IMG/VR virus record: IMGVR_UViG_3300032243_000061
Location: 1-27,768 of that record
Direction: 5' to 3' (one strand)
DNA from: a virus
Taxonomy: Duplodnaviria; Caudoviricetes
Length of the DNA: 27,768 nucleotides
The translations under genes and the position numbers were made by a program. Under the pieces are notes generated by a model. That model saw only the letters and a program-made list of their open reading frames with translations. It was not told where the DNA came from and did not search any database. Positions within the stretch are counted from its first letter, which is position 1. Each line of letters starts with the position of its first letter. Positions 14,001-27,768 of the stretch are shown one piece after another.

Positions 14001-16525
14001 GTTTGCCTAAAGCACAGCGTCAAGAAATGATACGTAAAATCAACGATCAATTTGGTCCCGGCAAACTAGTATTCCCGTACTTCCCACTACGTCGTTTTGG
14101 AGATAACTGGTTTCAAATTGGCAAGGGGCCTAACAAAGAGTTTTATACCTTTTCAAACTCATTCAGCCGCAACCTTTCGTTTAACAAGCGTCGTCGGCAG
14201 TTGATGGCTGGCAATGCTCAACAAAAAGCAGCCGCAGATACTATGCGTATGGGTAATGGCATATCTGAGTTGTATTCTCAAAACATTGCTACAACCCAAG
14301 TGCTACGTGACCTTGAGGACACAATTAACAGTCTGACTGCTACAGATGTAGCAGGCATCAAGTCTGAGATAAAAGACAGTCTTAACCAACTCGTCTATAT
14401 GCTATTGCCACAACAAAGCATGCGTAAGATGTTTATTAACCGTCGGGCTGTCCAAGGTGCTAGCAGTGACATGTTGCGTGTGTTTGCTCAGACTTCCGTG
14501 CGTAGTGCATATCAGATGGCTAGGTTTAAGTACGCCGAGCCTTTTGTCAACAACATAAACAACGCCCGTGACCATATTGATAGTATGGAGTCGGCGCATG
14601 CCATAACTCCTCAACAGGGTGGGGTATACCGTGACTACGTGTTGGAGTTGGAAAAGCGCACCAAAGTTATTCTTGGTGTTGAAGATAAGAGCGCAATAGC
14701 TCAATCCGTTGGCGCTATTACAGGCACTACGTTTTTCTTCATGCTGTCGGCTCCTGCTAGTGCGTTGCTTAACATTCTCGGTATGGCGCAACTTACAATG
14801 CCATATATCGGCGGTCGTTATGGCTACGCTAAGACTAATGTAAAAATGCTTAAGTACTTGGCGCTTTATGGGTTGTCTATGCCCGAGCGTTCGCTAGCGC
14901 CTTTGATGCGCGGTAATTTTGCACAGGTATCATTTCCATCTATTGTGGAGAGTAGCATTCTGGCTACGATGGACCCGATTGTGCAACGTGCGGCTAAGCG
15001 TTTTGTAGACGATGGAGACATTAACATCTCCATGACTAACGACATTTTTGATCTTAGCGAAAACCCATCGGCGCTCTACACTGGATACACTAATACCGCC
15101 AAGAAACTTTTGGCTGGCGTATTTCATCAAGCAGAACGACTTAATCGTGAGATTTCGTTACTTACTGTATTTGAATTGGCGTACGACAAGTTTACAAAAC
15201 AACCTAAACGCAATATCCGTGGTGTGGTTGAGCGCGATAATTCTGGTAAGCCTGTGATGAATAAACCAAGCGAAGCGTTTGAACTTGCGTTGCAAGAAGC
15301 TCGTGATATTGGAGGCTTAACGCTTGGTGACTATACCCGCCAAACAAAAGGACGCATCTTTGCGGAAATTCCTACGCTAAATGTAGTCGCTCAATTTAAG
15401 CAATACGCTATCGGTGCTACATATAACATACTACGCAATACTTACTTATCTGTCGGTGCTCCATTCCGTAAGGCTGAGATTGAGCAGTTCCGTCAAGAAA
15501 TGATTAAAGATGGTTTGCCACCAACGATAATTGACCAGCGCCTAGATGAGGCCGAGCAGATTCGTAAAGAAACATATCGCGAAGGTATGAAGCGTCTTGC
15601 GGGTATCCTCGGTATGTCGTTCTTGTTCGGTGGTATAGCTGCTCAGCCGTTCTTCTCCATGCTCGGTCAGCTCATTCAGATGTTTGCACCAGATGACGAT
15701 GACGAGTTCTTTGATTGGGAGAACTGGTTCTACAACTACATGGAGAATGAAGTTGGTGGTTCAGCCGCAGCAATCTTTAAGAAGATGGGCATGGACGCCG
15801 AGAAATCCGAGAAAGCTGGCGTTGCCCTTGGCGAAGCGCTTGCACGCGGACCTGTTGCTACTATGACTGGAACATCGCTTGCTGATCGTGTTAGTTTGGA
15901 TTTGAAAAACCTCTGGTGGCGCGAGGGTCGGTATTCTCCTGATGCGCGGCAATCATTACAGCAAGACATTATTGCTAACATCGGTCCAACTGTTGGGCTA
16001 GGGCTAAACTGGGCAGATGCTTGGCAGTTGGCAGGTGAAGGTCAGTGGGGTCGTGCGTTTGAAAAAGCTGCCCCTGCTATGTTTAGCAAAGCTGCTACTG
16101 CGTATCGTCTTGGAGATGAAGGTGCTACATCTAGTGGTGGTGAAGTTATTGGCGGGCTCTACCCAGAACAGTTCACTACATGGGAACTGGGGATGCAGGC
16201 TATTGGTCTACAGCCAGAGAAACTTGCACAGGCACAGAAGGCTGCTATCCAAGCCAAAACTTATGAGCAAAAAATCTTAGACCGACGCAACTCGTTACTT
16301 GACCGTCTATGGATGGAACGTGGCAAGCCTAGTTATGCAGATGCGTTGCAAAAATCGAATGAGTTTTCTTTAAAGTACCCAGAGGTTGCTATCGACGGCG
16401 ATGCTGTTTCTAACTCGTTCGATGCTCGTGCAGAAGCTAAAGCACAAGCCGAAGCAATCGGCGCAAAGTTAAATGGGAAGATGCTAGGGCGCACCGCTCC
16501 TATGTTGCGCTACGGTATGCAGTAA
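8072..16525 (+). CDS. Giant polyvalent internal virion protein: KOW-like, GHKL ATPase, two HExxH zincin domains and a PLxRFG-type C-terminal region
   Basis: 2817 aa, last gene of the structural arm. GHKL boxes: KELLQNSFDA (10646-10675), QDNARGM (10772-10792), GGLGLA (10871-10888), HGTT (11030-11041). Zincin motifs: HEMAH-x5-H (from 12173) and HEIVH...SEFVAE (13049-13219). YFPLRRFG at 14078-14101. Confidence 0.8.
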   Translation: MAWTPPSDAVVVQPTNDAPVEGWKPPSDAVAVKAQAPAWTPPTDAVVAEAPSSGSPMGEDLGAAIMGEAAPRSPKTFTGSVFDTEPFNPALSPEEATRLSRRAYAEQTTKPARRLPPEMTPSPEYVGRDRTADEVALDLTAALSKGTAGFFKGILNNLPGDPGTALFEGIEQRAERAVSPITKGSEIARQGAISRAQQLEGEVGAARATYQTMFTPAGMQVIMQGAGSIIPSVGLSLVGLSAKAVTAANMLSNAGDAAVQSAEQLKQISPQEWSKNEVYRSLRDSGLSHRDTVNMLAPIYAVPSQAFGAITGAISGSTGLEKALIGGAKKGLLSSAKRAGAELLGEEVESVVPQFVGNLVASTIDPKITATQGLGQTAVETAFGTLPGASLAALPSKRTNALNSYAQSKGYADVQDMIRKVVPTAGRKAVEEELIDALDREADEREIADQEAAAEREAIQAPPVEITPLEGPEPPDIFKPPVDGIPTPTKPTPTPAPVEESLLGAMDITDPQKTPMFKYITGVNKTLDSFYNNLYSKDPLQLPDDLRTTRYILDGVNDAMSTIQDRLVNWDHPAITGATESDRRMGKARATAEERELLSAASNLSAIGTRLANQSMALYKGYKGKKAGSQAKIDAAEKELQKEFAHAINLLDARGLLSEEESKEWRATRAAMPQEALPEPKERIDELLDERYPFLAEEPPQQVPVDKPAPITDLFTPETPEDSTTPKPVEDKPYFGSEEINALGDKIKDAINTITNDFMVGDLVRYGNTSGTVIGTDDTHVKLHPDGAKSPKAFYRVPKARVELVARPDTTSKSAAMAMSGEDKKFGSEQGKLNADMGGLIQLLGANMYAASIAEVTVKELLQNSFDAVKGAVSSKKAPSLYKHGEITITFDDNERTITIQDNARGMTPEIVRDAFFTVAGSDKSDLAPEDRSGGLGLAKMGFMLGAERLILSTVRDGVRVTVDTTSKDIANSKFQIVKKPAPKGEHGTTVTVKIPEYYVDPKTGEKKDIYFSANPEYYDVLEKPLIGPVTVKTIRKRTFDSEEKTLPVGLDFPADKYLPFKVNFNWGSADIYFAKERNSGPSYSIKHQVLSSGVYQFNAEFKLGDERIPYDIIVNIKPNVEAKHPDYPFENSRERFKKRLEEDITSMGAYLAQIAHGNEAADLQENFKNIVSMPRVDVGQDIADTTNKLQKSFDRRGIVERRELPPMPGEVWVTGPLVVTDGGKVLADTAKEAEKQTKGSFQAEQAAPEMEDFLLNMAQNPNQPIFHNNTNVDFLEIGRQYGKPERFFAELGTVMVEMKEALANSGMYGYDKLKPENLFFGGVSIDKKYGGVHIKVPYKAVLINPFYDFGAKTLFGAREYLWETMTHEMAHTGDMGHGVGHNTHMLKVRQYLADEGLADYFRDALMEILTKHESAFTAMREAYGRSTTKNTAKSLEDYGKGSASASDGSATSRSEDSIRPLPAGRGSGGYGDIRAASAANPTSGIPRAAGSTSPDSVKGLNQDVVDAINRNDVNATLRAISRNTSGLYAELARRLAELNLPTSIVFNNERALVRQLIDDSSAQQQIRLFAYLSRVAPEVYEKYFKDYDKSENLERVNEGLTKLGGIDTNPVNTELAAVKEAYRKNITGLTAPGFFAPTMDAINIRPNPILGSDNRVVLHEIVHAATEFMLYGQLGNLTTEQLQAVADIYEMYDYAQSKLPPGDYGFTSISEFVAEIMTNQGFQNKLKAIPYPARKTSVLNSFVNFVANLFGFKNLTGAAMSAVNDILSPHRPSVVKAGPLRFATNPPKKRVRGPISKPDTWRTAEKVETTIKEEISNATKGRIPLGTALKDLTGALWSASGSGVRFLILPVLNLRQLKDLTRTKFPQLTGAVDIVEKMVAYRGQRIKVAEKIVQTWGPLQDKYPKQSSLMSRIMLESTIRARDPDAGVPAGGVPDALDNAYAALRPEFKQLYREVRDFFGTQVTEMVRTMKQRALGLPKAQRQEMIRKINDQFGPGKLVFPYFPLRRFGDNWFQIGKGPNKEFYTFSNSFSRNLSFNKRRRQLMAGNAQQKAAADTMRMGNGISELYSQNIATTQVLRDLEDTINSLTATDVAGIKSEIKDSLNQLVYMLLPQQSMRKMFINRRAVQGASSDMLRVFAQTSVRSAYQMARFKYAEPFVNNINNARDHIDSMESAHAITPQQGGVYRDYVLELEKRTKVILGVEDKSAIAQSVGAITGTTFFFMLSAPASALLNILGMAQLTMPYIGGRYGYAKTNVKMLKYLALYGLSMPERSLAPLMRGNFAQVSFPSIVESSILATMDPIVQRAAKRFVDDGDINISMTNDIFDLSENPSALYTGYTNTAKKLLAGVFHQAERLNREISLLTVFELAYDKFTKQPKRNIRGVVERDNSGKPVMNKPSEAFELALQEARDIGGLTLGDYTRQTKGRIFAEIPTLNVVAQFKQYAIGATYNILRNTYLSVGAPFRKAEIEQFRQEMIKDGLPPTIIDQRLDEAEQIRKETYREGMKRLAGILGMSFLFGGIAAQPFFSMLGQLIQMFAPDDDDEFFDWENWFYNYMENEVGGSAAAIFKKMGMDAEKSEKAGVALGEALARGPVATMTGTSLADRVSLDLKNLWWREGRYSPDARQSLQQDIIANIGPTVGLGLNWADAWQLAGEGQWGRAFEKAAPAMFSKAATAYRLGDEGATSSGGEVIGGLYPEQFTTWELGMQAIGLQPEKLAQAQKAAIQAKTYEQKILDRRNSLLDRLWMERGKPSYADALQKSNEFSLKYPEVAIDGDAVSNSFDARAEAKAQAEAIGAKLNGKMLGRTAPMLRYGMQ
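8078..8209 (+). repeat. Three copies of the peptide repeat W[TK]PP[ST]DAV at the N-terminus of the giant protein
   Basis: Copies at 8078-8101, 8138-8161 and 8186-8209. They are in frame and diverge mainly at synonymous positions. Confidence 0.9.
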
Positions 16526-16720
16526 TTACCTACGCCAGACGCGTAGTCCCTTGATGCCGTCTTCAATGACGGCTTTTATTGCCACCCTAAACCCAAGCCG
16601 CTTAGTCACGGCTCGGATTGTGGTTTTACTTTCTTCTATTCTTAGGCACGGTATAAAGAACGACGTGCCTCTCTTAAACCTACGCCAGTTAATGTTGTAG
16701 TCAAGGTCATTTATCCTCAT
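16526..16720 (-). CDS. Small basic hypothetical protein (GxRVWR-ending phage family, putative DNA-binding)
   Basis: Probable start ATG 16720 (MRINDLDYNINW..F..G.SFFIPC...GIKGLRVWRR), 64 aa, overlapping the primase stop. Confidence 0.75.
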   Translation of the reverse strand: MRINDLDYNINWRRFKRGTSFFIPCLRIEESKTTIRAVTKRLGFRVAIKAVIEDGIKGLRVWRR

Positions 16721-19526
16721 CGGCGGAGTCGGCCTCGTCCGTATCTGAAGTACCCATGAACGCATCGGGGTCTAGGAAATCACCCTGCGAGCAATCAAAT
16801 ACAAAGACGTCAACAGGTGGAATACCGCTAATCTTCGTACCTTTAGCCATGCGCTTCTTCACTATGCCGACATAGACGCCGTCGTTTGTAAGCGAGGCCA
16901 GCACATCTTTAATAGTGATCTGGTGCTCAGCACACCACGTCCGCAACTTCTTACAAATAATAAATAGCTTCTTAGTGTCAGGCTCCATCCGAATGATAAG
17001 TTCGCCCTGTGGTTCTAAGATAGGGAGCATCTCTACCCCAGTACGTTTGTCCGCCTTATCATTAATCACCAAAGTGTTGCGACGATGCTCGCTCCAGTAT
17101 TCACCGATCACGCTAGCATGCGTAGTAACTGGGGGCTTATTCTCCAAACGCATCTGACCAAACTCAGCTGTAGCCCACTTGAGCACACGACCGACGTTAA
17201 TGCTGTGAATCCCTAAACGCTTGGCAAACAATGCACCTGCTAGATTGCACGCCGCCACACCTGACCAGAACCGCTCGCGGTTGGTAAACCCCATCTGCTC
17301 ATCAATGATGCGTTGTAGCTGTTTGACTTCAAGGATGCGCTCTTCCAAGTTCTCCACCAAGTCGCGCATGTAAATAGGGCCTGCATGACCATAGTTTGTG
17401 TACAGTTTGGGATACAACTCGTCAGCCTCTTGCTTAGTCATCAGCTTAGTCTCAGGGATTTGGTACTCAATTACCCGCATGAGCTCACCGTCAGGTGTGG
17501 ACTTCAAGGACTTAAGCTTATCTACAGCAGATGCGTTTGAGGAACAGAGAAGGATAGTTTGCCACTTAGCCATGTTGATACGCTCAGAGTTCTCACTGGA
17601 CTTCATCCGCCCACGGCCTCGGCCTTGTGAAACTGCATAGGCAAAGTCAGAGAAGTCGTCTGCCTTCATCTTGGTGATCTCGTCACAGCCTAAGCCCATA
17701 TTGTTCATAACACCTAGTCGGTGCAAGCGCACATTCATAGTGTCGCGCTCGATCAGCATCAGTTCTTCTGGGTGCCCAAACACACTGTGCATAGCCTTGA
17801 TCGCTGTTGTCTTGCCTGTGCCAGACTCGTTGTTAATCATGTTGACGATTGCGCCCTTTAAATTTAAGTGACGCATCAACGGCGCACCGAATGCAGTAAA
17901 GAACCCAAAGGCATGCGGCTCAAAACCCGGCTGGTCATACGCATTCACAACGCTTTGCCATTCCTCGTAAGAACCAACTGGGTTAAACCAATCTACAAGC
18001 CCCGAGGTGTAACTAGATGGTGGGCTGTACTTGTCGCCCTGTGCGGTGATTTCTTTCTCGCCAATAATGAATGACTGATTCTTCTCGGTCCAGCCGAATT
18101 GTGATCTCATAATTTCTGCTCCTTGTTTATATTGCATCTCTTTCACCGATCGAACGATGTAAGCCATGATGTTGTCCATTTGTTTTTTCAGCGCCACGAC
18201 GCCAAACCAAGCCAGCCTTTCGCGCAACTTATCTGTTGTTAGTAAATCCACTACAGCCAAAGCAAACTCTTTTACGCCGTCACGGGGGGTGTGCAGACGC
18301 ATCCAAATTGTTTCGCCCGCTTGCGGGTCTTTCAATCGCTTGACCACATATAGGTCATGCTCGTAAATCAAGTCGGCTTCAGGATCGTCCTCGTCATCTG
18401 ACTTGCGGTAGACACCGCCGTTCTTACCTCTAAAGTATGGGAAGGGGTACTCAGGGACGTCATAGACAACCGTCTTTTCCTCAACCACATACTCAATCTT
18501 GTTGTCCTCGGGTAGCGCCGCCGCAATCTCTGCGCCGAGCGTGATAGGGGATTTGATCTTGCCTTTATGTATGCAACCTACGCAACCTGATGGATTGATA
18601 GCCTCCCACGACTCACATGTATAAGGTCCTCGTATTAGTTCAACTTTAGCAATCGTGGCATCAGGGTTGTAGTCTGGATGGTCTCTAGATACATCATGGA
18701 TAGCTGTATCAACATCGGTACAGAACTTAGCAATAGACAATGTCGCACGCCAGCGCGGTTCATCTAAAATCTTCTGGTCAGCAATGGCCCTAGCTAGCTG
18801 CAGACAGCCTGTTCCGTTTACGTTCTTGTCTACTATGATTTGGAATCGGTGCTGTCGGTTGCCCATCAGCGCCTTAGTCATATCATCTGCAAATGTAGGC
18901 AAATAGTCAGGCGTCTCATCCATCACGCCTAACTTGTCTTTGAAATCCTCAAACGAAATATCGTTGCCCATCACCATAACTGCTACTTCTAGCGGCGGCT
19001 CGGCTTTGTGGTTGAGCGTATCTGGCATCCTCAGTATGGATGCGGCATCAGCCGTGCGGCTAGGGTCGGCCTCTAAGCCTTCCTCATTACACAAAACTTT
19101 CAAACGCTTAGCCGCATTCACCCACTCTTTGCGGGCAATCGGCGCAGTCAAAGGCCAATAGACATGTAGTCCTCGACCCGAATTCACTACAGTCGGCTTC
19201 GGTAATCCTACGGTTTTGCAAAAACCTTTAAGTGCTTCTAGTCCCTCAGACTGATCCGCATATGGCTTACCTGTTCCGCAGTCAATGTCAAGCCAAAATG
19301 ACTTGATGTTCTTCACGTTATCGTTAGTACGTGAACCTGATTCTTCATACTTTGCGCAAGCAAAATAGACGTCAAATTGCTCGTCCAATAAATCTTGAAC
19401 GGCGTCTTCTACACCCTGCATATCCTCAACAAATATTTGCCGAGGGTGACCTGTCTTCTTCAGACCGACCACGCAGTACCACCCGTCAGGCGATAGCACC
19501 GCCGACAGTAACCCTGCTCTTGTCAT
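16707..19526 (-). CDS. Primase-helicase: RepB-like AEP primase, Cys-containing primase C-terminal domain and DUF927-type helicase
   Basis: AEP motifs FWLDID, VNSGRGLHVYW and RMPDTLNHK; EPRWRA.LSIAKFC...YTC..W....C..C; QFGW; Walker A ESGTGKTT; Walker B CDE; NYGHAG. Start reassigned to ATG 19526 (SD GAGG) rather than 19574. Confidence 0.88.
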   Translation of the reverse strand: MTRAGLLSAVLSPDGWYCVVGLKKTGHPRQIFVEDMQGVEDAVQDLLDEQFDVYFACAKYEESGSRTNDNVKNIKSFWLDIDCGTGKPYADQSEGLEALKGFCKTVGLPKPTVVNSGRGLHVYWPLTAPIARKEWVNAAKRLKVLCNEEGLEADPSRTADAASILRMPDTLNHKAEPPLEVAVMVMGNDISFEDFKDKLGVMDETPDYLPTFADDMTKALMGNRQHRFQIIVDKNVNGTGCLQLARAIADQKILDEPRWRATLSIAKFCTDVDTAIHDVSRDHPDYNPDATIAKVELIRGPYTCESWEAINPSGCVGCIHKGKIKSPITLGAEIAAALPEDNKIEYVVEEKTVVYDVPEYPFPYFRGKNGGVYRKSDDEDDPEADLIYEHDLYVVKRLKDPQAGETIWMRLHTPRDGVKEFALAVVDLLTTDKLRERLAWFGVVALKKQMDNIMAYIVRSVKEMQYKQGAEIMRSQFGWTEKNQSFIIGEKEITAQGDKYSPPSSYTSGLVDWFNPVGSYEEWQSVVNAYDQPGFEPHAFGFFTAFGAPLMRHLNLKGAIVNMINNESGTGKTTAIKAMHSVFGHPEELMLIERDTMNVRLHRLGVMNNMGLGCDEITKMKADDFSDFAYAVSQGRGRGRMKSSENSERINMAKWQTILLCSSNASAVDKLKSLKSTPDGELMRVIEYQIPETKLMTKQEADELYPKLYTNYGHAGPIYMRDLVENLEERILEVKQLQRIIDEQMGFTNRERFWSGVAACNLAGALFAKRLGIHSINVGRVLKWATAEFGQMRLENKPPVTTHASVIGEYWSEHRRNTLVINDKADKRTGVEMLPILEPQGELIIRMEPDTKKLFIICKKLRTWCAEHQITIKDVLASLTNDGVYVGIVKKRMAKGTKISGIPPVDVFVFDCSQGDFLDPDAFMGTSDTDEADSADEDK

Positions 19527-19543
19527 AGCCGCCTCTAAGAAAT

Positions 19544-19578
19544 GCGTCGGAGGGGCGCGGCGAGCCCCGTCCAAACGC
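19544..19578 (-). terminator. GC-rich stem-loop between HTH and primase genes (possible terminator/attenuator)
   Basis: Minus-strand GCGUUUGGACGGGGC-UCGCCGC-GCCCCUCCGACGC followed by AUUUCUU. It fills most of the intergenic gap; the U-tract is weak. Confidence 0.5.
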
Positions 19579-19820
19579 TACTGAACAAACCCAACCTTAG
19601 AAAGCATCTCGTTAATTTTTGCTTCGTGTACCTTGCGTGGAATCCAATCGCCTGAGAACCATTTATAGATTGTCATGCGGCTAACTCCAAAGTACTCAGC
19701 GACTTCACGAACGGGATAATCTTTCTTAATACAGAATCGCCCCAGCTTTACGCCGGAGCTCTCTGTACTTGCTTCTTGGTTGGCGCGAACGATTCGAGTT
19801 GCGTAACCTCTGTTATCCAT
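19578..19820 (-). CDS. Helix-turn-helix DNA-binding protein (Cro/XRE-like)
   Basis: PVREVAEYFGVSRMTIYKWFSG is a classic HTH. TAATG coupling to the upstream gene. Confidence 0.85.
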   Translation of the reverse strand: MDNRGYATRIVRANQEASTESSGVKLGRFCIKKDYPVREVAEYFGVSRMTIYKWFSGDWIPRKVHEAKINEMLSKVGFVQ

Positions 19821-20686
19821 TACTCGTCTTCAGTCCACTGTTTGAGCACGTCATTGAATTCCTTCTTAGTAGCGGGCTCGGCGTTCTTCTTGGCAGTACG
19901 CTTTGTTGGCTCAGGCATGATTTCTTCATCCTGTGCTTTAGGTGCGGGTGCGGCAATCGCTTTCTTCTTAGGCCCATCAGTTTGTGATGGAGTTTGTACG
20001 ACAGCGGCTTTAGCGGCAGGGCTATCACCTTTGTCTTTAGCAGACATCCACTCTTCTTTGGATAAGAAACGCACGGGTTTGAAGGTCAACTTAGGGGTAT
20101 CGCTATCACTGTCCATACGCATCTCTGTTACCAAAGTGCTGATGCTCTTGCCTTGCGCGCCGACATACTTAGCGTATTGTTGGAACGGCATCTTGTCTAC
20201 ATCGCCACGACCGAAGATTGACTTAGCGGGCAACACCAACTGAAATACATCGCCTGCAACGTCGTCGGCTAATAGAACAGCCAAGCGTTGTTGGTAACGG
20301 CAAGCGCGTGAATCGCCTTGACCAGAACCTTTGATGTTTTGCTCACAGCCTTCGCAAGAAGAATGTTGTGGGTACTCGATGCTTGCATCGGGCTTGTCAC
20401 CGTCGTTAGACCAGCAATCAGGGTGCGAAGTCTCACCAGCAACATACTTACCAGCATAGAAAGAACGCGACACTTTTGTCGCACCATTAACAATGACGAT
20501 GTTCATTGAACGGTTTTCATTCTTGGCAATCTCTTCACCACTGACCATCATGCGAAACACACCACCACGGATGGAGATGCGCTTCATGCCAGTATTACCA
20601 GCAAGCGCTTTGGTCATGTCGTCGAGGCCGACGTCCTTTAGGTAGTCAGGGAGATTGTTGCTAAAGAGCGCGAGGTCGTTACTCAT
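19820..20686 (-). CDS. Conserved phage replication protein, putative ssDNA-binding protein
   Basis: Start ATG 20686 (MSNDLALF; SD AAGGA). Motifs RISIRGG.F and PDCWS.DG..P...C..C..N..GS....RAC (4 Cys), a Lys/Ala/Pro linker and acidic tail WTEDE, in the replication cluster. The SSB function is inference. Confidence 0.6.
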   Translation of the reverse strand: MSNDLALFSNNLPDYLKDVGLDDMTKALAGNTGMKRISIRGGVFRMMVSGEEIAKNENRSMNIVIVNGATKVSRSFYAGKYVAGETSHPDCWSNDGDKPDASIEYPQHSSCEGCEQNIKGSGQGDSRACRYQQRLAVLLADDVAGDVFQLVLPAKSIFGRGDVDKMPFQQYAKYVGAQGKSISTLVTEMRMDSDSDTPKLTFKPVRFLSKEEWMSAKDKGDSPAAKAAVVQTPSQTDGPKKKAIAAPAPKAQDEEIMPEPTKRTAKKNAEPATKKEFNDVLKQWTEDE

Positions 20687-20855
20687 TTGATTTTCCTTTG
20701 ATAAAGTTGTATATAACATTTGCGTTGTACATCAGTTCTGAAACTGATGTGTATTGCTTGGACTGTTTGTTCAGCTCAAGCGCCTGATCTACCGCACGCT
20801 CTCGGTAGAACATTTCGTCGCGTTCCCTGCGGAACGCTAATTCTTCAATGTCCAT
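20679..20855 (-). CDS. Small hypothetical protein (58 aa, below the ORF-track cut-off)
   Basis: MDIEELAFRRERDEMFYRERAVDQALELNKQSKQYTSVSELMYNANVIYNFIKGKSNE. TAATG coupling with the upstream gene and an 8-nt overlap with the downstream start; it exactly fills the gap. Confidence 0.7.
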   Translation of the reverse strand: MDIEELAFRRERDEMFYRERAVDQALELNKQSKQYTSVSELMYNANVIYNFIKGKSNE

Positions 20856-21250
20856 TACTTCCTCCGGATGGTGATTTCATATTCTCGGTCGATATTCAAT
20901 CCCATAGGTTCACTATCAGGATTGTTATCCAAGAACTCTTTCATATTCATTTGATGAATACGTTTTTCTAGCAACTGCATTGCTTCGTGCTCGCGCATAA
21001 AGGTGTAGAAGCTTTCCCAGTCATTAGTCCAATAGCGGTCTTTGACGGTTCGATACGCAGTTCCCTGCGGTGTTGAAAAGCTAGTAACGCCAGTCTCTTT
21101 AGAGACCTCAAGTAACTTTTGCTTTAGGGTAGTCATCTGCTCTTCTAGCTCGGCAGTATCAGCCTTATACTTTGCGTATATAGCATCTTTTGAATCGCGA
21201 ATCTTAATATAAGCGCCGACGATTTTGTCAATAGAAACATCTTGTTCCAT
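20855..21250 (-). CDS. Conserved phage hypothetical protein (coiled coil plus beta region)
   Basis: 131 aa, YIKIRD..., S.ST..GT.YR......NDW.SFY.F.......LLEKRI.Q..MKEFL..NP...P.GL. SD GGAG; first gene after the 21385-21412 promoter. Confidence 0.75.
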   Translation of the reverse strand: MEQDVSIDKIVGAYIKIRDSKDAIYAKYKADTAELEEQMTTLKQKLLEVSKETGVTSFSTPQGTAYRTVKDRYWTNDWESFYTFMREHEAMQLLEKRIHQMNMKEFLDNNPDSEPMGLNIDREYEITIRRK

Positions 21251-21278
21251 ACTCTTACTCCAATTTGTTTTTTATAGG

Positions 21279-21378
21279 TGTTGGTGATGCGTTCACATAA
21301 AGCAGTGTGGTTCAACTTACTTGGTATTTGCACAATTCAAGTAAATACGGCGCTAACCCGCATTACACACCACCAACA
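21279..21378 (-). ncRNA. Putative structured RNA (four-way junction), 5' leader or small RNA
   Basis: A 14-bp closing stem UGUUGGUGGUGUGU/ACGCAUCACCAACA (2 G-U pairs) encloses three hairpins: AUGCGG/CCGUAU, UUACUUG/CAAGUAA and CACA/UGUG. It begins at the predicted TSS. Confidence 0.7.
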
Positions 21379-21384
21379 AAAATC

Positions 21385-21412
21385 ATTATACTCTATTTGT
21401 TGACTTTGTCAA
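21385..21412 (-). promoter_or_regulatory. Sigma70 promoter with consensus hexamers and overlapping inverted repeat
   Basis: Minus strand TTGACA (21412-21407), N16, TATAAT (21390-21385). The inverted repeat TTGAC-TTT-GTCAA (21400-21412) overlaps the -35. Confidence 0.85.
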
Positions 21413-22956
21413 GAGTTAATTTCATTTTTATACAAATCAATAATCTTGTTATGGAAGTCCAATTTGTTTTGCAACATTGAGTAGAGTTTTGTTTCTACTG
21501 GACTACCTTCAAGATGCACGATTGTCATAGGGTTACGCTGTCCGGGTCGATCGATACGCGCGTTTGCTTGCAGGTATGTTTCAATCGACGTGACAGGAGC
21601 GTACCACACGATTACGTTCGCCGCAGTTAGGGTAACCCCATGTGCCGCCGCTTGCGGTTGAATCAAAAGTACTCGTGGTTCATCTGACTCTTGAAACCTT
21701 TTGAAGATATCGGTACGCCTTGACACGCTTACAGAGCCATTGATTATCTCTGACGTTACCTTGTTCTTTGTTAGGAAATCCTGTACTAGATTTAGTGTAT
21801 GTGTAAAAGGTATAAATACTAAAACTTTATGGCTTGCTTCTTCAATAACTTCTAACAAAATGTTTAATCTACTGGACGCATCAAACTCAATTACATTTTT
21901 AGTATCGGTATATACAGCGCCACAAGATATTTGGAGCAACTTGTTTAGTTGTGCCGCCGCATTTACGGCAGAAACCTCGTCGCCAACTGCCTCAATCAAC
22001 ATTTCTTTCTTGAGGTCTTTGTAGTATTTAGATTGTTGTGATGTCAGTGGCGCAAACCGCGAAGTATGTGTTACATCAGGCAAGTCAATGCAATCTTTTT
22101 TCTCAAAACGAATAGCGGGTTGTAGTAAGTTATGCACAATACTTTGGGCTTGTGGTTTTGGAATCCACTTAAACCGTGTAAATTGGTACATAACAACGTC
22201 GCGAAATGCTGTGTATAAGTGTGGGGTTCTTGCTGGCACACATAGTTTGGCTAAGCCATAAGCATCTAGTGGTGATTGCGCTGCGGGTGTACCCGTCATC
22301 ATCCATACCCAAGTATCAGGAGTGACGATCCTTCTCAACGTTTTAAACCGTTCAGTCTTTGGGTTCTTGTACGCATTAGCTTCGTCAATGATGACGAGGT
22401 CAAACCCACCAGCCTTGAGTTCTTCCTCAACGATTGCCACCCCATCGTAGTTAATGATGACGTACTCGGCGATGCCTTCAACAATAGCCTTGCGTTTCTT
22501 GCGATCTCCGTGTGCCACATCTACGTGGCGATGGACAGCAAATTTAAACAAGTCGGCTTGCCATGCGGCTTGCATGATGGACACAGGACAGATAACCAAT
22601 ACCCGTCGTATGTATTCCTGCTCAAGCAGGTAATCCGATGCCCAGATAGCTGATGCAGTCTTACCAGTACCTTGTTCGTTAAAACAAAAAGCGCGTGGGT
22701 GCAATGTCAAAAAGGATGATGTTTCCTTCTGATGGTTCATTGGTTTGAAAAGTCCGGGCCAGTTGTAATCGCGTTCAATCGGGGACGGCACATCAGGTAG
22801 CCCTAATGTCTTAAGCATCTGTGCTTCCTTCAACCCCCAATGGACAGCCACCGAACCGTCAGTAGTCTCGGTGCTTTTAGCAATCGTAGAAAGAATCTTT
22901 TGCGGTTCTTCTGTTTCAATCAGTAGGTACTTGTTGTCAATTACTTGCATGTTCAT
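21409..22956 (-). CDS. SNF2-family (SF2) helicase
   Basis: Motif I NEQGTGKT, Ia VICP, II IIDEAN, III MTGTP, V AHGVTLT, VI QANARIDRPGQ. Confidence 0.92.
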   Translation of the reverse strand: MNMQVIDNKYLLIETEEPQKILSTIAKSTETTDGSVAVHWGLKEAQMLKTLGLPDVPSPIERDYNWPGLFKPMNHQKETSSFLTLHPRAFCFNEQGTGKTASAIWASDYLLEQEYIRRVLVICPVSIMQAAWQADLFKFAVHRHVDVAHGDRKKRKAIVEGIAEYVIINYDGVAIVEEELKAGGFDLVIIDEANAYKNPKTERFKTLRRIVTPDTWVWMMTGTPAAQSPLDAYGLAKLCVPARTPHLYTAFRDVVMYQFTRFKWIPKPQAQSIVHNLLQPAIRFEKKDCIDLPDVTHTSRFAPLTSQQSKYYKDLKKEMLIEAVGDEVSAVNAAAQLNKLLQISCGAVYTDTKNVIEFDASSRLNILLEVIEEASHKVLVFIPFTHTLNLVQDFLTKNKVTSEIINGSVSVSRRTDIFKRFQESDEPRVLLIQPQAAAHGVTLTAANVIVWYAPVTSIETYLQANARIDRPGQRNPMTIVHLEGSPVETKLYSMLQNKLDFHNKIIDLYKNEINS

Positions 22957-23348
22957 ACCTTTATCCGAGCCATAGGTGCATACTGGTCAATGACATTGTG
23001 GGTTTCTACTTCACCCAAAGCAACAAGACGCTGGGCTACAACATTTAGATAGTCGTCTTCAAGAGGGGTCTCCATAGAAATCCAACGAGTTCCATATGAA
23101 AGCATCCAAGCGGCACGAAGTTGTTCCACGGTTAACTCAAACGCTGGGTGTTTGTCCAAGTCGGTGCTCCTAAGATTTACTTGTCGTGGATAGCTTTGAG
23201 GCAGTGTTTTGCTTATGGTGGCGTTGTTGCCGATGTGAGTGATGTATGGGCCAGATCCGATTTGTATCATCGAAGACCCATATAGCAAAGCATTAGTATT
23301 TGCCTCTTCTATTGCCTTATTTAACCCCGTGGTCGGATCGGCGAGCAT
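22953..23348 (-). CDS. Hypothetical protein
   Basis: Open frame ending in an ATGA overlap with the helicase. The start is uncertain (ATG 23348 or 23270; 23444 would overlap HNH by 128 nt). Confidence 0.6.
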   Translation of the reverse strand: MLADPTTGLNKAIEEANTNALLYGSSMIQIGSGPYITHIGNNATISKTLPQSYPRQVNLRSTDLDKHPAFELTVEQLRAAWMLSYGTRWISMETPLEDDYLNVVAQRLVALGEVETHNVIDQYAPMARIKV

Positions 23349-23583
23349 ATGATCTATTGTCTGTTGCAGACTTGACGCGCAAGTTTGATCTTGTGGTTTT
23401 TCCGCCTTTACTAAGAGGTTTTTTGTGATCGACATCTTTTCCATCTCCCTTGTGAACTAATCCTGCTTCTTCCATGATGCGCCGTGCTTTGTTGCGCTCG
23501 GCTCTTTTTTTCTTAACGGCGGGCGTGCCGTCGTATGTTTCGTATTCGTGTTTGTATGGTCTTGGCTTATTGACGTAGGGCAT
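23317..23583 (-). CDS. HNH endonuclease-like protein
   Basis: Start ATG 23583 (MPYVNKPRPYKHEY; SD AGGAG). KGDGKDVDHKKPLSKGG....NLRV.....NRS beta-beta-alpha-Me motif; 88 aa. Confidence 0.85.
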   Translation of the reverse strand: MPYVNKPRPYKHEYETYDGTPAVKKKRAERNKARRIMEEAGLVHKGDGKDVDHKKPLSKGGKTTRSNLRVKSATDNRSYARRSDHGVK

Positions 23584-23591
23584 AGGGACTC

Positions 23592-24269
23592 CTAAAGTTT
23601 CTTGCTGTTGTGTTCGCAGTCGGTTACAGGGCACCAACCACGGCAGGTAAAGTTTGGTCGAGGGTTCCAAACATCCGTAATCATCGCACTCTCTAGCTGA
23701 TTTGTCTCGGGTATCCACTTGCTCCAAGCATCAGTTTGTTGATCTGCATTGAACTCGGCGCGGACCAAGTCTTTGACAACCAAGAACATCAAACCAGCCT
23801 TGATTGTTTTGACTTGTGGGAAGTGTTTAAAGGTTAGTAGGGACAGCAGTTCGAGTTGTTTCTTGTCGGCGTACCGACTGGACTTGCTAGTCTTGTAATC
23901 AATGATGCGTGCTTTCTCACCATCAATAACCAGTAAGTCAGTAATCCCACGAAACCAAACATCTTTATCTCTGAATCCGCAGGGCTTCATGTCCTTGGTC
24001 AAGCCCATCTCATGCTCACATAACTTCTCACCTGACAAGGCTTTCAGTGGGTCAAGGAACGGCTGGATGTAAGCGTACTTTTCTGGTATCGGAGTACCAT
24101 CACGCACGTATTCTTCTGCTGCCTTATGAACCGCACTGCCGTAGAGCAAGTGTTCCTGTGGTGGCTCGACGATATCCTTGACGATACGCATCCTGTGGTA
24201 CTTGCGGGGGCACTGCTGAAACAGCGAGATGCTTGAATACGACCATGTGTAATTCACGTTAAGTTCCAT
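23592..24269 (-). CDS. Cas4-like PD-(D/E)XK exonuclease
   Basis: WSYSS...F.QCPRKY, G..VH, RGITDL...IIDYKT and QL motifs. C-terminal C-x3-C-x4-C completes a 4-Cys Fe-S-type set. Confidence 0.88.
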   Translation of the reverse strand: MELNVNYTWSYSSISLFQQCPRKYHRMRIVKDIVEPPQEHLLYGSAVHKAAEEYVRDGTPIPEKYAYIQPFLDPLKALSGEKLCEHEMGLTKDMKPCGFRDKDVWFRGITDLLVIDGEKARIIDYKTSKSSRYADKKQLELLSLLTFKHFPQVKTIKAGLMFLVVKDLVRAEFNADQQTDAWSKWIPETNQLESAMITDVWNPRPNFTCRGWCPVTDCEHNSKKL

Positions 24270-26113
24270 TTCTCAATAGACATTTTCTTACTGCAGTCGC
24301 CGTAGTTTTTACCTACGCCAATCTCACACGCTAGAGGTAGTGTCTCGGCCCATTTAGGTTTCCAACGCATGCACTCATCCACATATTTAATAGCTTCATC
24401 GCGCTCTGCTTCGGGTACTACACATGCCACGGCATCATGCACGGTTAAAACTGGCTGATATCTTTTAGATATCTTTAGCATTTGCTCAGCAATAACACAG
24501 CGTGCTAGAGCTTGACATAAGTTCTCCACTACCTTGCCGCCGTAGATTCGTACTGTGCCTTTGCGTGTATCGTAGACGTACTGTGCTCGGCCCCGATCAT
24601 CAACTTCAGTGGCACGCAGATTCATATACTTGAGAGGTAAACCGCTAGGTAGATCATAGCCAATTCCGGGAAGAACGCTTACTGCCTGTGGTTGTTTCCC
24701 AAATGTAGTAGTAACAAGTTTTTCACTTGACAACGCATCAAGTGTGTTGTGTCCTTCATCCCATAACGCAGGGACATAGGGAAACTCTTGGCGATATACC
24801 TTCAAGATATGTTGGCACATGTTGTCGCCCAAACTTACCCCAAAGTTCTTTAGTTGTAGTTGAAACTTCTTCCAACCCATGCCGTAGCCAGCACCAAGAA
24901 TCGTAGTCTTACCCACAAATCTTTCGGCATCATCAATCTCTTCAACTGGTTTGTTATATATCTTCGCCGCCATGATCTTGTACACGTCCAAACCTTTTGC
25001 GAACGCACTTACTAAATCAGCTTGCCCCGCTAACCATGCAACGATCCGCGCTTCGATCTGTGAGGAGTCGGCGTCCATCATGACGTAGCCTTCGGGTACT
25101 ACGATAGCAGTCTTGAGAGGTGACTTGCGCGGTATGTTCTGCAAGTTCAGTTTGTCGTCCCCGCCCCAACGCCCTGTGTGTGCGGCATAGTATCTCAGCG
25201 GTACTGGAAGGCTACCGCGCTTCGCTATGGAGATAAATCTTTGTGTGCGTGTCTCTTCTAGTGTGGACTTTGTCCCAAGCCGTGCGGCAACAAGTGCTTG
25301 CACTCGCTCGTCCCAATGCTCTGCTAGGGCCTTGAACCCTTCATCGCTTTTAGCTAAAGCCAACGCCATCTTTCCTGTCGTGGGGCTAACCTTCATGGGT
25401 GGTGGAACACCATACTCAATCAGTCGCTCAGCAAACTTCTGATTGGACATAAGAACTTCACGGTCGGCGCATGCCTCAGCGATCAAGGCTTCCTTCTTCT
25501 CTTGTACTTGTACAAGATGCTGTTCAAGTACTGGTAGATCAAGACGCAAAGTCGGCTCTGTGAACATACGCAAAGTCATATCTATTAGACGTAGCTCAGG
25601 CTTTTGGAAGTTTGCTTGTAGGATTTGGAATAGGTCGTAGGTCAGCTTGACGTCGTTCTTGCAATACTCGCCGTATTGTTTTAGGTCTGCTTCAGTGAAG
25701 TCGGCGCGACGCTTACCCATTGCCGTAACAACCTCAGTTCCCTTGACCCCTAAGCCGTAACGCTCAGCGGCTTTTGCTAAGCTATTACCTACCTCAGTGC
25801 CGTCAACAGCACGAAGCATTGCTAGGGTATCAAGAAGAACTTTTGGTTTAATACCAAACCGCCACGACAAAATCGCGGCATCGAACATGCAGTTGTGTGC
25901 AAGAAGAAAAGACTTATCCCAAGGAAATTGCATGAGCCACTCTTTGGTGGCTTTCATGTCCCCACTAAACCATGCAGTTTCCTCGTCGTTTAATTTAACG
26001 CCAACGCCTATGGCTTCAAAGCGATCATCACGAATGTATTCCTCCGTCGTCAGTTTAGATAGAGAGAAGTCTTTGTCATAGAACGTCTCGAAGTCAAGTG
26101 CAATCAGGTTCAT
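24254..26113 (-). CDS. polA: DNA polymerase family A with 3'-5' exonuclease
   Basis: ExoI LDFET, ExoII AHNCMFD, ExoIII YCKND; HTGRW; NLQNIP; motif A DSSQIEAR; motif B RFVGKTTILGAGYG; motif C VHD. Confidence 0.95.
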   Translation of the reverse strand: MNLIALDFETFYDKDFSLSKLTTEEYIRDDRFEAIGVGVKLNDEETAWFSGDMKATKEWLMQFPWDKSFLLAHNCMFDAAILSWRFGIKPKVLLDTLAMLRAVDGTEVGNSLAKAAERYGLGVKGTEVVTAMGKRRADFTEADLKQYGEYCKNDVKLTYDLFQILQANFQKPELRLIDMTLRMFTEPTLRLDLPVLEQHLVQVQEKKEALIAEACADREVLMSNQKFAERLIEYGVPPPMKVSPTTGKMALALAKSDEGFKALAEHWDERVQALVAARLGTKSTLEETRTQRFISIAKRGSLPVPLRYYAAHTGRWGGDDKLNLQNIPRKSPLKTAIVVPEGYVMMDADSSQIEARIVAWLAGQADLVSAFAKGLDVYKIMAAKIYNKPVEEIDDAERFVGKTTILGAGYGMGWKKFQLQLKNFGVSLGDNMCQHILKVYRQEFPYVPALWDEGHNTLDALSSEKLVTTTFGKQPQAVSVLPGIGYDLPSGLPLKYMNLRATEVDDRGRAQYVYDTRKGTVRIYGGKVVENLCQALARCVIAEQMLKISKRYQPVLTVHDAVACVVPEAERDEAIKYVDECMRWKPKWAETLPLACEIGVGKNYGDCSKKMSIEKWNLT

Positions 26114-26319
26114 GCAATCTTTCTGTTAATCCACCAATGCTTTAGGTCGTACCACACGTCTACCAAACCAATGCACGCCCTATCCATTAGAGGTATACGA
26201 CTTTCAAGGTGCGCTATCCGTAGTTTTAACTCGGCGTTTTCTAATAGCAACTCGCTGTTGTGCATGGACATAAGGTTCCATGCTTTCTGTACGTCCGCAC
26301 TTACACCTTTCATTTTCAT
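26110..26319 (-). CDS. Hypothetical protein
   Basis: Probable start ATG 26319 (ATGA overlap with upstream gene). Short coiled coil; the stop overlaps the polA start. Confidence 0.65.
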   Translation of the reverse strand: MKMKGVSADVQKAWNLMSMHNSELLLENAELKLRIAHLESRIPLMDRACIGLVDVWYDLKHWWINRKIA

Positions 26320-26558
26320 ACGCCACCCACTTTCATAATGCCATACTCGGAACGCTTCCAAAGAAACGCAGTAGACGGTGTAGCCCCAGCACTAAATAAC
26401 TCTGCTACCGTATAAACATTCTTGTTATGTCTTGGATATCCCGGGCCAACGTATCTCTTCACGTCTCGGTAGTGTGGTAGGTAAGTGATGCCATTTAGTT
26501 TATAAACAGCGTACTGATGTAACTCGGTGCGGTCGTCGTCTTTTGCTTTTGTAGTCAT
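26316..26558 (-). CDS. Hypothetical protein
   Basis: 80 aa, ATGA-coupled, SD GAGG; aromatic-rich YLPHY..YVGPGYPRH core. Confidence 0.7.
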   Translation of the reverse strand: MTTKAKDDDRTELHQYAVYKLNGITYLPHYRDVKRYVGPGYPRHNKNVYTVAELFSAGATPSTAFLWKRSEYGIMKVGGV

Positions 26559-27043
26559 TTAGTCACCTCTGGCTGTGGTGAGAACTTAGCAATCTCGCGG
26601 TTCAGATACCAACGTGCTTTGCATAGGTCTTCATAATGACTACCTTTGTGGTCGGCGCGACTAATGTATTTAACTACGTTACCAAGGTTGTAGCCAAACT
26701 CTTTTGCGTCGATGAAGTCGATAGTCTCGATACCGCCCACTTTGTAATGTGCGGGGTGATCTACTAATTCAGCTATGCGTTGTTCAGACCTACCCTTACT
26801 TACTTCGTAAGCCAAGTCTTCTATAGCCTTATCGCTTGTTACTGCGCCCATAAACGCCCATTTATTTTTTGTCTTCAAGATCGGTGGTAACAATAGTTCT
26901 TGCTTTTTGTTATCCATGTATCGAATGTTGTGTACGTATTGCGCTGTTGCACCAGTGGCGTCGGCGACTACCTGTGCTTTTGCATTTGGGTACTTTGCTA
27001 AATACTTACGAACTTTTGCGCTGATCATTGATTTTCTTGCCAT
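26555..27043 (-). CDS. DUF3310 (SaV-like / T7 gp1.7-like) protein with N-terminal HTH-like extension
   Basis: Start ATG 27043 (SD GGAG). C-terminal VDHPAHY..GGIETIDFI......GNVVKYISRA.HKG...EDL.KA.WYL.REI; N-terminal KVRKYL...PNAKAQVVADATGATAQYVHNIR. Confidence 0.85.
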   Translation of the reverse strand: MARKSMISAKVRKYLAKYPNAKAQVVADATGATAQYVHNIRYMDNKKQELLLPPILKTKNKWAFMGAVTSDKAIEDLAYEVSKGRSEQRIAELVDHPAHYKVGGIETIDFIDAKEFGYNLGNVVKYISRADHKGSHYEDLCKARWYLNREIAKFSPQPEVTK

Positions 27044-27059
27044 AGTTTTCTCCATTAAA

Positions 27060-27203
27060 TTAAAAAGGGGCTTGTTCAAGTTGGGGTGGTGTTTGATGTT
27101 TCAATAGTTTTTTATGTAGCCTTTCTAGAATCTTTCCGTCTACTCGCTCGAACGGATTCCAATCGTTCTTGCATATTTTTGATATGTGTTCTTCGTTCTT
27201 CAT
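27060..27203 (-). CDS. Small hypothetical protein (overlaps the Zn-ribbon gene)
   Basis: MKNEEH...WNPFERVDGKILERLHKK...EQAPF from ATG 27203. It fills 27060-27111 but overlaps the 27112-27345 gene by 92 nt. Confidence 0.45.
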   Translation of the reverse strand: MKNEEHISKICKNDWNPFERVDGKILERLHKKLLKHQTPPQLEQAPF

Positions 27204-27345
27204 CAATTGCCTCTTGCGGGATAAAGACTTCTTGGGTTGTAAATCTGTGTTCGTTTCCACATTCTCTCCTTCGTGTATGCCCAAAAGTGGGCGATTCTCT
27301 AGTTGTTTTAACTGTCGACCAAGCGTTACAGATGGGACATTTCAT
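27112..27345 (-). CDS. Zinc-ribbon protein (NrdR N-terminal-like / Ogr-Delta-like)
   Basis: MKCPIC....V..TR.......RRRECGNEHRFTT.E; SD GGAGG. Confidence 0.85.
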   Translation of the reverse strand: MKCPICNAWSTVKTTRESPTFGHTRRRECGNEHRFTTQEVFIPQEAIDEERRTHIKNMQERLESVRASRRKDSRKAT

Positions 27346-27443
27346 TTATCCTCCGATAACATAAAGATTGCTACAAAAGTAGCAACAACAACTATTGCGC
27401 CAAGGCACATTAGAAATACTATCCAAGCGATTGTTTCAAGCAT
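27342..27443 (-). CDS. Single-pass membrane peptide (33 aa, not in ORF track)
   Basis: MLETIAWIVFLMCLGAIVVVATFVAIFMLSEDK. SD AAGGAG; ATGA overlap with the downstream gene. Confidence 0.7.
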   Translation of the reverse strand: MLETIAWIVFLMCLGAIVVVATFVAIFMLSEDK

Positions 27444-27768
27444 TGTTCTTCTCCTTAAGGTCCGTCATAGCGGTCGTTTTGAACAAGTTAGGTCTGTTTT
27501 GTCCGCTATGGCTTATACTCTCTTTCTCCAACTTAGCCAGTCGGTCACCCAACTCGCGTATCAGCATCCGAGCCACGGCTAGTTCTTCCATAAGCTCAGA
27601 AACTGTAACCTTCCGGTGAGTCTTTTCTGGCACTTCATACACGGCGGGTTTGCTTATCTTTTCTTCGCGTGTGGTTTTGCGCATTTTTGTCCCGATCGGG
27701 GTATTTTTTATCACTTCAGAGTGTTTTTGTGCATTTATGACCTGATCGGGATATTTTTCAGGCTCTTC
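27436..27768 (-). CDS. Hypothetical protein (frame open to window edge; start uncertain)
   Basis: The frame has no stop from 27768 (EEPEKYPDQV...) to 27436. C-terminal coiled coil ELMEELAVARMLIRELGDRLAKLE. Alternative start at ATG 27684. Confidence 0.6.
   Translation of the reverse strand, partial: EEPEKYPDQVINAQKHSEVIKNTPIGTKMRKTTREEKISKPAVYEVPEKTHRKVTVSELMEELAVARMLIRELGDRLAKLEKESISHSGQNRPNLFKTTAMTDLKEKNNA
27671..27760. repeat. Imperfect 40-bp direct repeat, 50-bp period, with palindromic CCCGATCGGG core
   Basis: 27671-27710 vs 27721-27760 match at 33/40 positions. Cores are CCCGATCGGG (27691-27700) and CCTGATCGGG (27741-27750). Confidence 0.8.

Follow-up and report, generated by a model that had tools for sequence, protein, structure and literature searches.

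The element at positions 21,279 to 21,378 on the minus strand has, judged by comparative sequence analysis, a real RNA fold and is a member of a large uncatalogued family of phage RNAs whose function is unproven. Its copies, about 100 letters long, occur in hundreds of unrelated bacterial-virus contigs. They are built around two hairpin loops that kiss through three base pairs, lie on a defined strand, come and go like a cassette, have no fixed neighbouring gene and carry a variable arm with a biased choice of letters. What is new is the fold and the family, since none of the 4227 Rfam families match; the mechanism may be of a known kind.

The window, that is the whole stretch of 27,768 nucleotides that was analysed, is a 27.8-kb phage record of which the right part is a minus-strand replication region with genes for a DNA polymerase A, a PD-(D/E)XK nuclease, an SNF2 helicase, a 131-aa protein and a DUF927 protein. 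The 131-aa product belongs to phrog_13900 and gives a weak DUF7307 match, under the Pfam cut-off. The promoter between the helicase and 131-aa genes is the sole 12/12 consensus match among 11 sites in the region 12000-27768, and the flagged fold begins at its expected start (Table 1). An initial sequence-only reading had placed the 5' end of P1 at this +1 and the downstream Shine-Dalgarno sequence outside the fold, and both placements hold. Elsewhere in the window, positions 8072-16525 encode a 2817-aa virion-region protein with an HSP90-like/GHKL ATPase domain at residues 855-973.

Table 1. Positions of the fold, its parts and the flanking signals and genes in the window.
Feature	Positions	Strand	Remarks
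SNF2-family helicase gene	21409..22956	(-)	upstream of the fold; last codons overlap the -35 box
Sigma70-type promoter, TTGACA-16-TATAAT	21385..21412	(-)	-35 at 21412-21407, -10 at 21390-21385; predicted start about 21379-21378
P1, 5' strand	21365..21378	(-)	outer part is retained by empty alleles as a small leader hairpin
P2, 6 bp closed by GG/CC	21345..21363	(-)	loop L2 at 21357-21351, GUUAGCG; family consensus NUURGCN
Variable arm	21308..21344	(-)	in the window a 7-bp hairpin plus linker
Conserved 3-bp hairpin, CAC/GUG	21294..21307	(-)	loop L3 at 21304-21297, UGCUUUAU; consensus UGCYNYAU; kissing partner of L2, from covariation
P1, 3' strand	21279..21292	(-)	pairs with 21378-21365, 14 bp
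Shine-Dalgarno sequence GGAG of the 131-aa gene	21258..21261	(-)	outside the fold
131-aa gene	20855..21250	(-)	downstream of the fold; first gene of an operon including a DUF927 primase-like gene

The minimum free energy (MFE) fold of the minus strand has an energy of -34.8 kcal/mol (z -3.16) and none of 200 shuffled sequences was as stable, against a z of -1.68 and 14 of 200 shuffles for the weaker plus-strand fold. Stems P1 and P2, the latter with loop GUUAGCG, are present in this minus-strand fold as originally drawn. The 7-bp arm that had been named P3 also forms in the MFE fold of the window but is not conserved, being part of a variable arm of 11-58 nt. The last hairpin, P4, had been drawn as CACA/UGUG with loop CUGCUUUA. 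The hairpin itself is conserved but was set two bases out of register: its stem is CAC/GUG and its loop UGCUUUAU, as follows from the occurrence of CAC/GUG, CGC/GCG or CCC/GGG at this place across the family. The expectation that no known RNA would fit was borne out, as Rfam 15 gave no motif match in the window, nor in 80 loci of both subfamilies. The Rfam 15 ribozyme classes, including hammerhead, twister, twister-sister, pistol, hatchet and HDV-like, did not match in the window and the scanned loci. The element is also not a tRNA, as had been argued from its features; ARAGORN reported 0 genes, RF00005 did not match, and P1, with 5-31 bp across the family, lacks the fixed length of an acceptor stem.

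By pattern scanning the core is estimated to occur in about 570 IMG/VR stretches and about 730 metagenome-contig stretches. Another 16 stretches come from GTDB bacterial genomes, 13 of them betaproteobacterial by title; the bacterial carriers are mostly Burkholderiales, and the cultured strain Variovorax paradoxus NBRC 15149 carries three copies. A model search of sampled bacterial genomes, with 27-40 candidates scored per genome and the centre genome counted, gave matches in 3/151 genomes at the level of order, 4/151 of family, 1/151 of class and 4/101 of genus, some of these being weak and not copies of the motif. Cultured phage and plasmid collections returned chance matches only. The consensus order is P1 (5-31 bp across the family), a P2 of 6 bp that has GG/CC as closing pairs and a 7-nt loop, the arm of 11-58 nt, the 3-bp hairpin with its 8-nt loop, usually AR, and the 3' strand of P1.

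Pairing is maintained in all three helices. A set of 154 non-redundant copies was selected with no rule on stems; in it, 542 of 616 cells at P2 positions 3-6 are paired. In P2 of these copies G-U occurs 40 times and A-C 12 times, in line with the earlier argument that G-U rather than A-C positions favour an RNA from the minus strand. For 125 of the 154, the better fold is that of the sense strand. The partner strands of P1 score highly in 153/160 copies, against 184/800 swapped controls, and in a model-fitted alignment double changes are seen at each of the eight modelled P1 pairs. The stem of the small hairpin is CAC/GUG in 219, CGC/GCG in 37 and CCC/GGG in 40 of 296 copies. The search patterns fixed many of the invariant positions; only one scan put no constraint on loop 2 and on part of loop 3, and it recovered the same core letters. 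At the base of P2, A-G appositions are frequent family-wide at positions 5-6 (45/616 cells), and the same base often stands at positions 1 and 7 of loop 2 (G.G, U.U or C.C). This suggests that both may be non-canonical pairs.

The contact between L2 and L3 had been proposed as four pairs (AGCG/UGCU). Covariation shows that the loops kiss, within one molecule or between two, through three of these, RGC/GCY, while the fourth, G with U, fails to pair in 18 of the 68 copies aligned. The facing pair that covaries is never broken in the 68-row alignment; among 296 distinct folded copies it takes the form A-U 248 times and G-C 48 times. A scan for the G-C form returned 99 stretches, 84 with the full fold, and these make up a second subfamily. 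Control scans with A facing C gave 8 stretches and those with G facing U gave 5, and none of these 13 folded in that register. Locus L422 has the A-U form inside an otherwise G-C lineage. In phage G183, a weak second model match has both loops changed at the facing position. The proposal of a structured minus-strand RNA of an uncatalogued family with loop-loop pairing is thus backed by covariation and control scans, as is the tertiary contact itself.

The behaviour of the core was followed in orthologous loci. A search with the 131-aa protein gave 36 viral loci, of which 35 had upstream sequence that could be compared. The fold is present in 18 of the 35 and absent in 17. The closest empty loci retain the promoter, as do the filled alleles, and what they keep of P1 is its outer part, a small hairpin whose loop measures 4-7 nt. 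In a tree built from the 30 closest genes, with five distant empty loci and one truncated locus excluded, presence changes seven times and at least three of these changes are forced by well-supported branches. Phages gain and lose the core as a cassette, and even near-identical viruses can differ in having it. Locus L002 carries a gene identical to the 131-aa gene of the window and lacks the core. Presence and absence among orthologous loci and the empty L002 indicate that a leader hairpin carries the core as cargo in its loop and that the 131-aa gene can do without it. In the locus upstream of position 3001 of L034, the orthologous leader hairpin holds an AT-rich palindromic insert instead of the motif.

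Gain and loss in hairpin loops would also fit a structure of single-stranded DNA or a selfish mini-element travelling from one hairpin site to another, with no function as RNA, and wobble pairs alone do not separate RNA from DNA. We consider this reading very improbable. The orientation of the copies tracks transcription with the 5' end at +1, the loop-loop kiss covaries, carriers have no recombinase or nuclease in common, and the empty alleles differ in their loops so that there is no single precise empty site.

Four RNA runs covered only small shares of the stretch. The core is not covered by the RNA contigs, which does not indicate absence; for L412 the RNA data consist of one partial 37-nt piece and likewise give no indication of absence. 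No transcript of a filled allele was seen in these data. One RNA contig of X1 joins across the core. Its letters are those of the empty allele found in DNA at loci L004 and L006, which rules out splicing out of the core as the explanation of the join.

The genomic setting of the copies bears on whether the element acts on its own transcript. In 56 of 152 copies P1 is preceded, at a distance of 3-10 nt, by a -10-like hexamer (control mean 7.7), so many copies would start at +1, and an SD-ATG follows 41 of 152. Terminator-like ends are found after 11 of 152 copies against 7 in controls, no overall enrichment; three copies in one bacterial chromosome (L652, L655 and L656) are each followed by a terminator-like hairpin. 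Pfam matches were obtained for 36 of the 92 upstream and 27 of the 83 downstream open reading frames on the same strand; these neighbours include SNF2 and other helicases, YqaJ, small and large terminase, Cro-like proteins, RusA, HNH, primase and capsid. Some copies adjoin tRNAs and Betaproteobacteria-1 RNA, and tandem copies occur.

A leader module acting in cis, either by stabilising the transcript or by modifying RNA polymerase for antitermination as the HK022 put element does, would agree with the +1 position of the 56 copies, with the co-orientation of the closest long downstream open reading frame in 47 of 56 cases, and with the location inside a 5' hairpin that the empty alleles keep. 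It is doubtful, and in our estimate improbable, because an SD-ATG follows so few copies, some copies are followed by a terminator or a new promoter, and the module is dispensable before the identical gene of L002. Anti-SD words in the arm are no commoner in leader copies (13/54) than in others (50/142), and pairing of the arm with the own downstream start site, which has p 0.03 after de-duplication at 80%, is no longer significant at 70% (p 0.14). A cis switch acting on its own Shine-Dalgarno sequence was at control level or absent. A riboswitch or gene-specific leader is not indicated either, as the copies have no consistent position before one gene class. The earlier suggestion that the RNA is a leader controlling the replication operon is not supported: the neighbours are unrelated, only the 41 of 152 copies precede an SD-ATG, the own start is not preferred and L002 is core-less.

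Several properties of the arm agree with action in trans. It folds no better than shuffled sequences (56 of 127 arms against a shuffle mean of 48.8). CUCCU occurs in 18 of 127 arms against 1.6 in shuffles, and 111 of 154 arms contain a word of the anti-SD or G/U-rich type against a mean of 45 and a maximum of 59, with the words picked after inspection of a k-mer list and the counts inflated by related copies. Complements of 7 nt to phage start regions in general are found at 0.069 for arms and 0.049 for shuffled arms, higher in 29 of 40 comparisons. On the other side, 6 of 154 copies have an arm of at most 17 nt, and the G/U words could pair instead with a C/A-rich tail after P1. In the window copy the arm is a closed hairpin that has no anti-SD word.

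We tentatively prefer, at somewhat below even confidence, a trans-acting small RNA of which the arm pairs with ribosome-binding regions of target mRNAs. A small RNA resembling C4 fits best because the fold is autonomous, often starts at +1, has no fixed neighbour and exposes an arm biased to complements of ribosome-binding sites. In this mechanism, the self-contained three-helix fold with its two kissing loops would be the scaffold. The RNA would be made from a promoter at +1 or released from a longer transcript, and the kiss would hold the arm out as a single strand. The near-invariant loop bases may bind a host factor, and the arm would pair with the ribosome-binding regions of target, probably host, mRNAs and repress their translation. 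Against this small-RNA reading, a target in the own phage genome was not found. The longest arm match was 10.47 nt in the own genome and 10.43 nt in other genomes, start regions were matched at 0.068 and 0.069, respectively, and the best own start-site duplex was in the top 5% for only 3 of 38 copies. Antisense targets in the own flanks and genome, and complements of the loops in the flanks, were at control level or absent. The loop bases are moreover stricter than a plain antisense scaffold needs, though the search patterns fixed many of them.

Among the closest known systems are the C4 antisense RNA and the P4 CI RNA grouped with it. According to the sections of PMC5320573 that deal with C4 (P1/P7, RF01695), this phage RNA of 80-100 nt has a long terminal stem and three helices, and its fixed scaffold presents variable loops that occlude ribosome-binding sites. 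Like the motif, it combines a fixed scaffold with variable single-stranded parts and has copies stranded in bacterial chromosomes (PMC5320573, same sections). The motif differs in that it matches neither RF01695 nor c4-2, has no complementary target sites above control level in flanks or whole contig, has two invariant kissing loops where C4 has a tetraloop hairpin, and in many copies starts at +1 and would need no RNase P cut. The Betaproteobacteria toxic sRNA (RF02278) likewise has CUCCU-type anti-SD words in an exposed strand in the same host group. However, this and other anti-SD sRNAs consist of a hairpin and a terminator, RF02278 did not match the motif, and only a minority of motif copies have a CUCCU-type word.

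A protein decoy or sponge offers a different account of the strict loops. Here the kissing-loop surface would inhibit a host protein, for example an RNA-neutralised defence toxin, with the arm as a spacer. We regard this as rather unlikely. The near-invariant loop bases and the free arm length agree with it, as do the patchy presence among near-identical phages (the seven tree changes, at least three forced), the occurrence of both subfamilies in tandem in phage G183, the lack of a phage-encoded partner shared by carriers and a copy that adjoins an Acb2/Tad1-family gene (L298). A precedent is given by phage mimics of the ToxI antitoxin in the part of PMC3594212 that describes them; these pseudo-ToxI RNAs are also pseudoknotted, tandem and accessory, but have another fold and size. 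No cognate toxin was found beside bacterial motif copies, where most neighbours are unannotated: the 36 open reading frames gave one weak mad1 match, in two near-identical ORFs, and NCBIfam gave nothing relevant. The letter bias of the arm would also be left unexplained.

A guide RNA of a phage-encoded effector was rejected. No protein family is common to 15 near-complete carriers, which represent several unrelated phage groups, and absent from the complete non-carrier G155, and none of the clusters absent from G155 occurs in more than 7 of the 15.

The third option for the loops is a new small self-cleaving ribozyme in which the kissing loops form the active site and the cut is possibly at the conserved pyrimidine-A step of L3. 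Such a catalytic RNA would cut the phage transcript, with the core moving as a cassette between leader hairpin sockets; both proposals seem quite unlikely to us. Stems and arm vary freely. The conserved bases are located in two loops joined by a long-range contact, as in twister-sister in the portion of PMC5660989 concerned with its structure, and copies lie near phage DNA-processing genes and in tandem, which is a context of bacterial ribozymes in passages of PMC6765202. The small size and phage intergenic context are shared with both twister-sister and pistol. In twister-sister, however, the contact is non-canonical and between an internal and a hairpin loop, whereas the motif joins two terminal loops by Watson-Crick pairs (PMC5660989, same portion). 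Circular permutation was not found, as a reversed-order scan gave 0 of 19 matches (6 tandem copies, 13 chance). Permuted forms are common in some ribozyme classes and not required. The pistol pseudoknot includes a strand complementary to the first loop, and such a strand is absent from the motif. Further points against catalysis are the lack of a known-ribozyme match in the 80 loci scanned against Rfam, the copies that end in terminators, at odds with self-cleavage according to a passage of PMC5737381, and the many copies that start at +1, where a cut would release little.

The P1-P2-P3 topology with an L2-L3 contact is also that of the three-way junction of purine-type riboswitches. There the junction is the ligand pocket, but in the motif this is the variable part, and no single gene class follows. 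A likeness of L3 to an rRNA boxA fails in the CGC and CCC variants. Anticodon-loop mimicry was dismissed, because C is invariant at position 37 and the kiss accounts for the R. The Burkholderiales-1 and GUCCY-hairpin alignments in the material of PMC2864571 that was compared are different motifs, and two word matches in the same material lie in C4 flanks. The two conserved words gave no match in a full-text search of papers, topic searches gave no description of the motif, and a literature search on toxic sRNAs yielded nothing of relevance. The four supplements of PMC10690425 that were searched hold no match; part of the motif may be among the 8495 uncurated candidates mentioned there, as that study screened IMG/VR automatically.

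Whether it represses translation by means of a swappable arm, acts as an RNA decoy against a host protein or is a ribozyme, the element would add a function to phage RNA. It is amenable to experiments, with 100 nt, natural loop variants, natural empty alleles and a cultured Variovorax carrier.

The motif behaves as exchangeable cargo in phage leaders, beside a second hairpin with variable inserts that adjoins 51 of 152 copies. This second recurring element (L095, L127, L123, L639 and about 100 distinct copies) is a stem with a conserved small internal loop, with ACGCAUG...GGAUU on the 5' side and AGUCYCCAGCCGU on the 3' side; its loop has highly variable inserts, sometimes the kissing-loop motif. 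It gave no Rfam match in the loci scanned and could be a processing socket of the RNase III type. Just before or after many copies (L128, L306, L412, L419, L366) a promoter-driven folded RNA ends in a U-run; a word upstream is complementary to one of its loops, which recalls C4 RNA and its target, and Rfam made no call. At about 2600-2720 of L310, and likewise in L136 and L208, the motif is followed by another cloverleaf-like element, which has two complementary loops and a variable middle and gave no Rfam match at gathering score. In the prophage region L298:1883-2669 the motif lies close to the Acb2/Tad1-family gene, two tRNAs and a PNKP-like phosphatase gene. Curvibacter (L303) and Variovorax (L311 and L658) have stand-alone copies in what looks like a cellular context, divergent from gyrA and from a type VI secretion VgrG gene.
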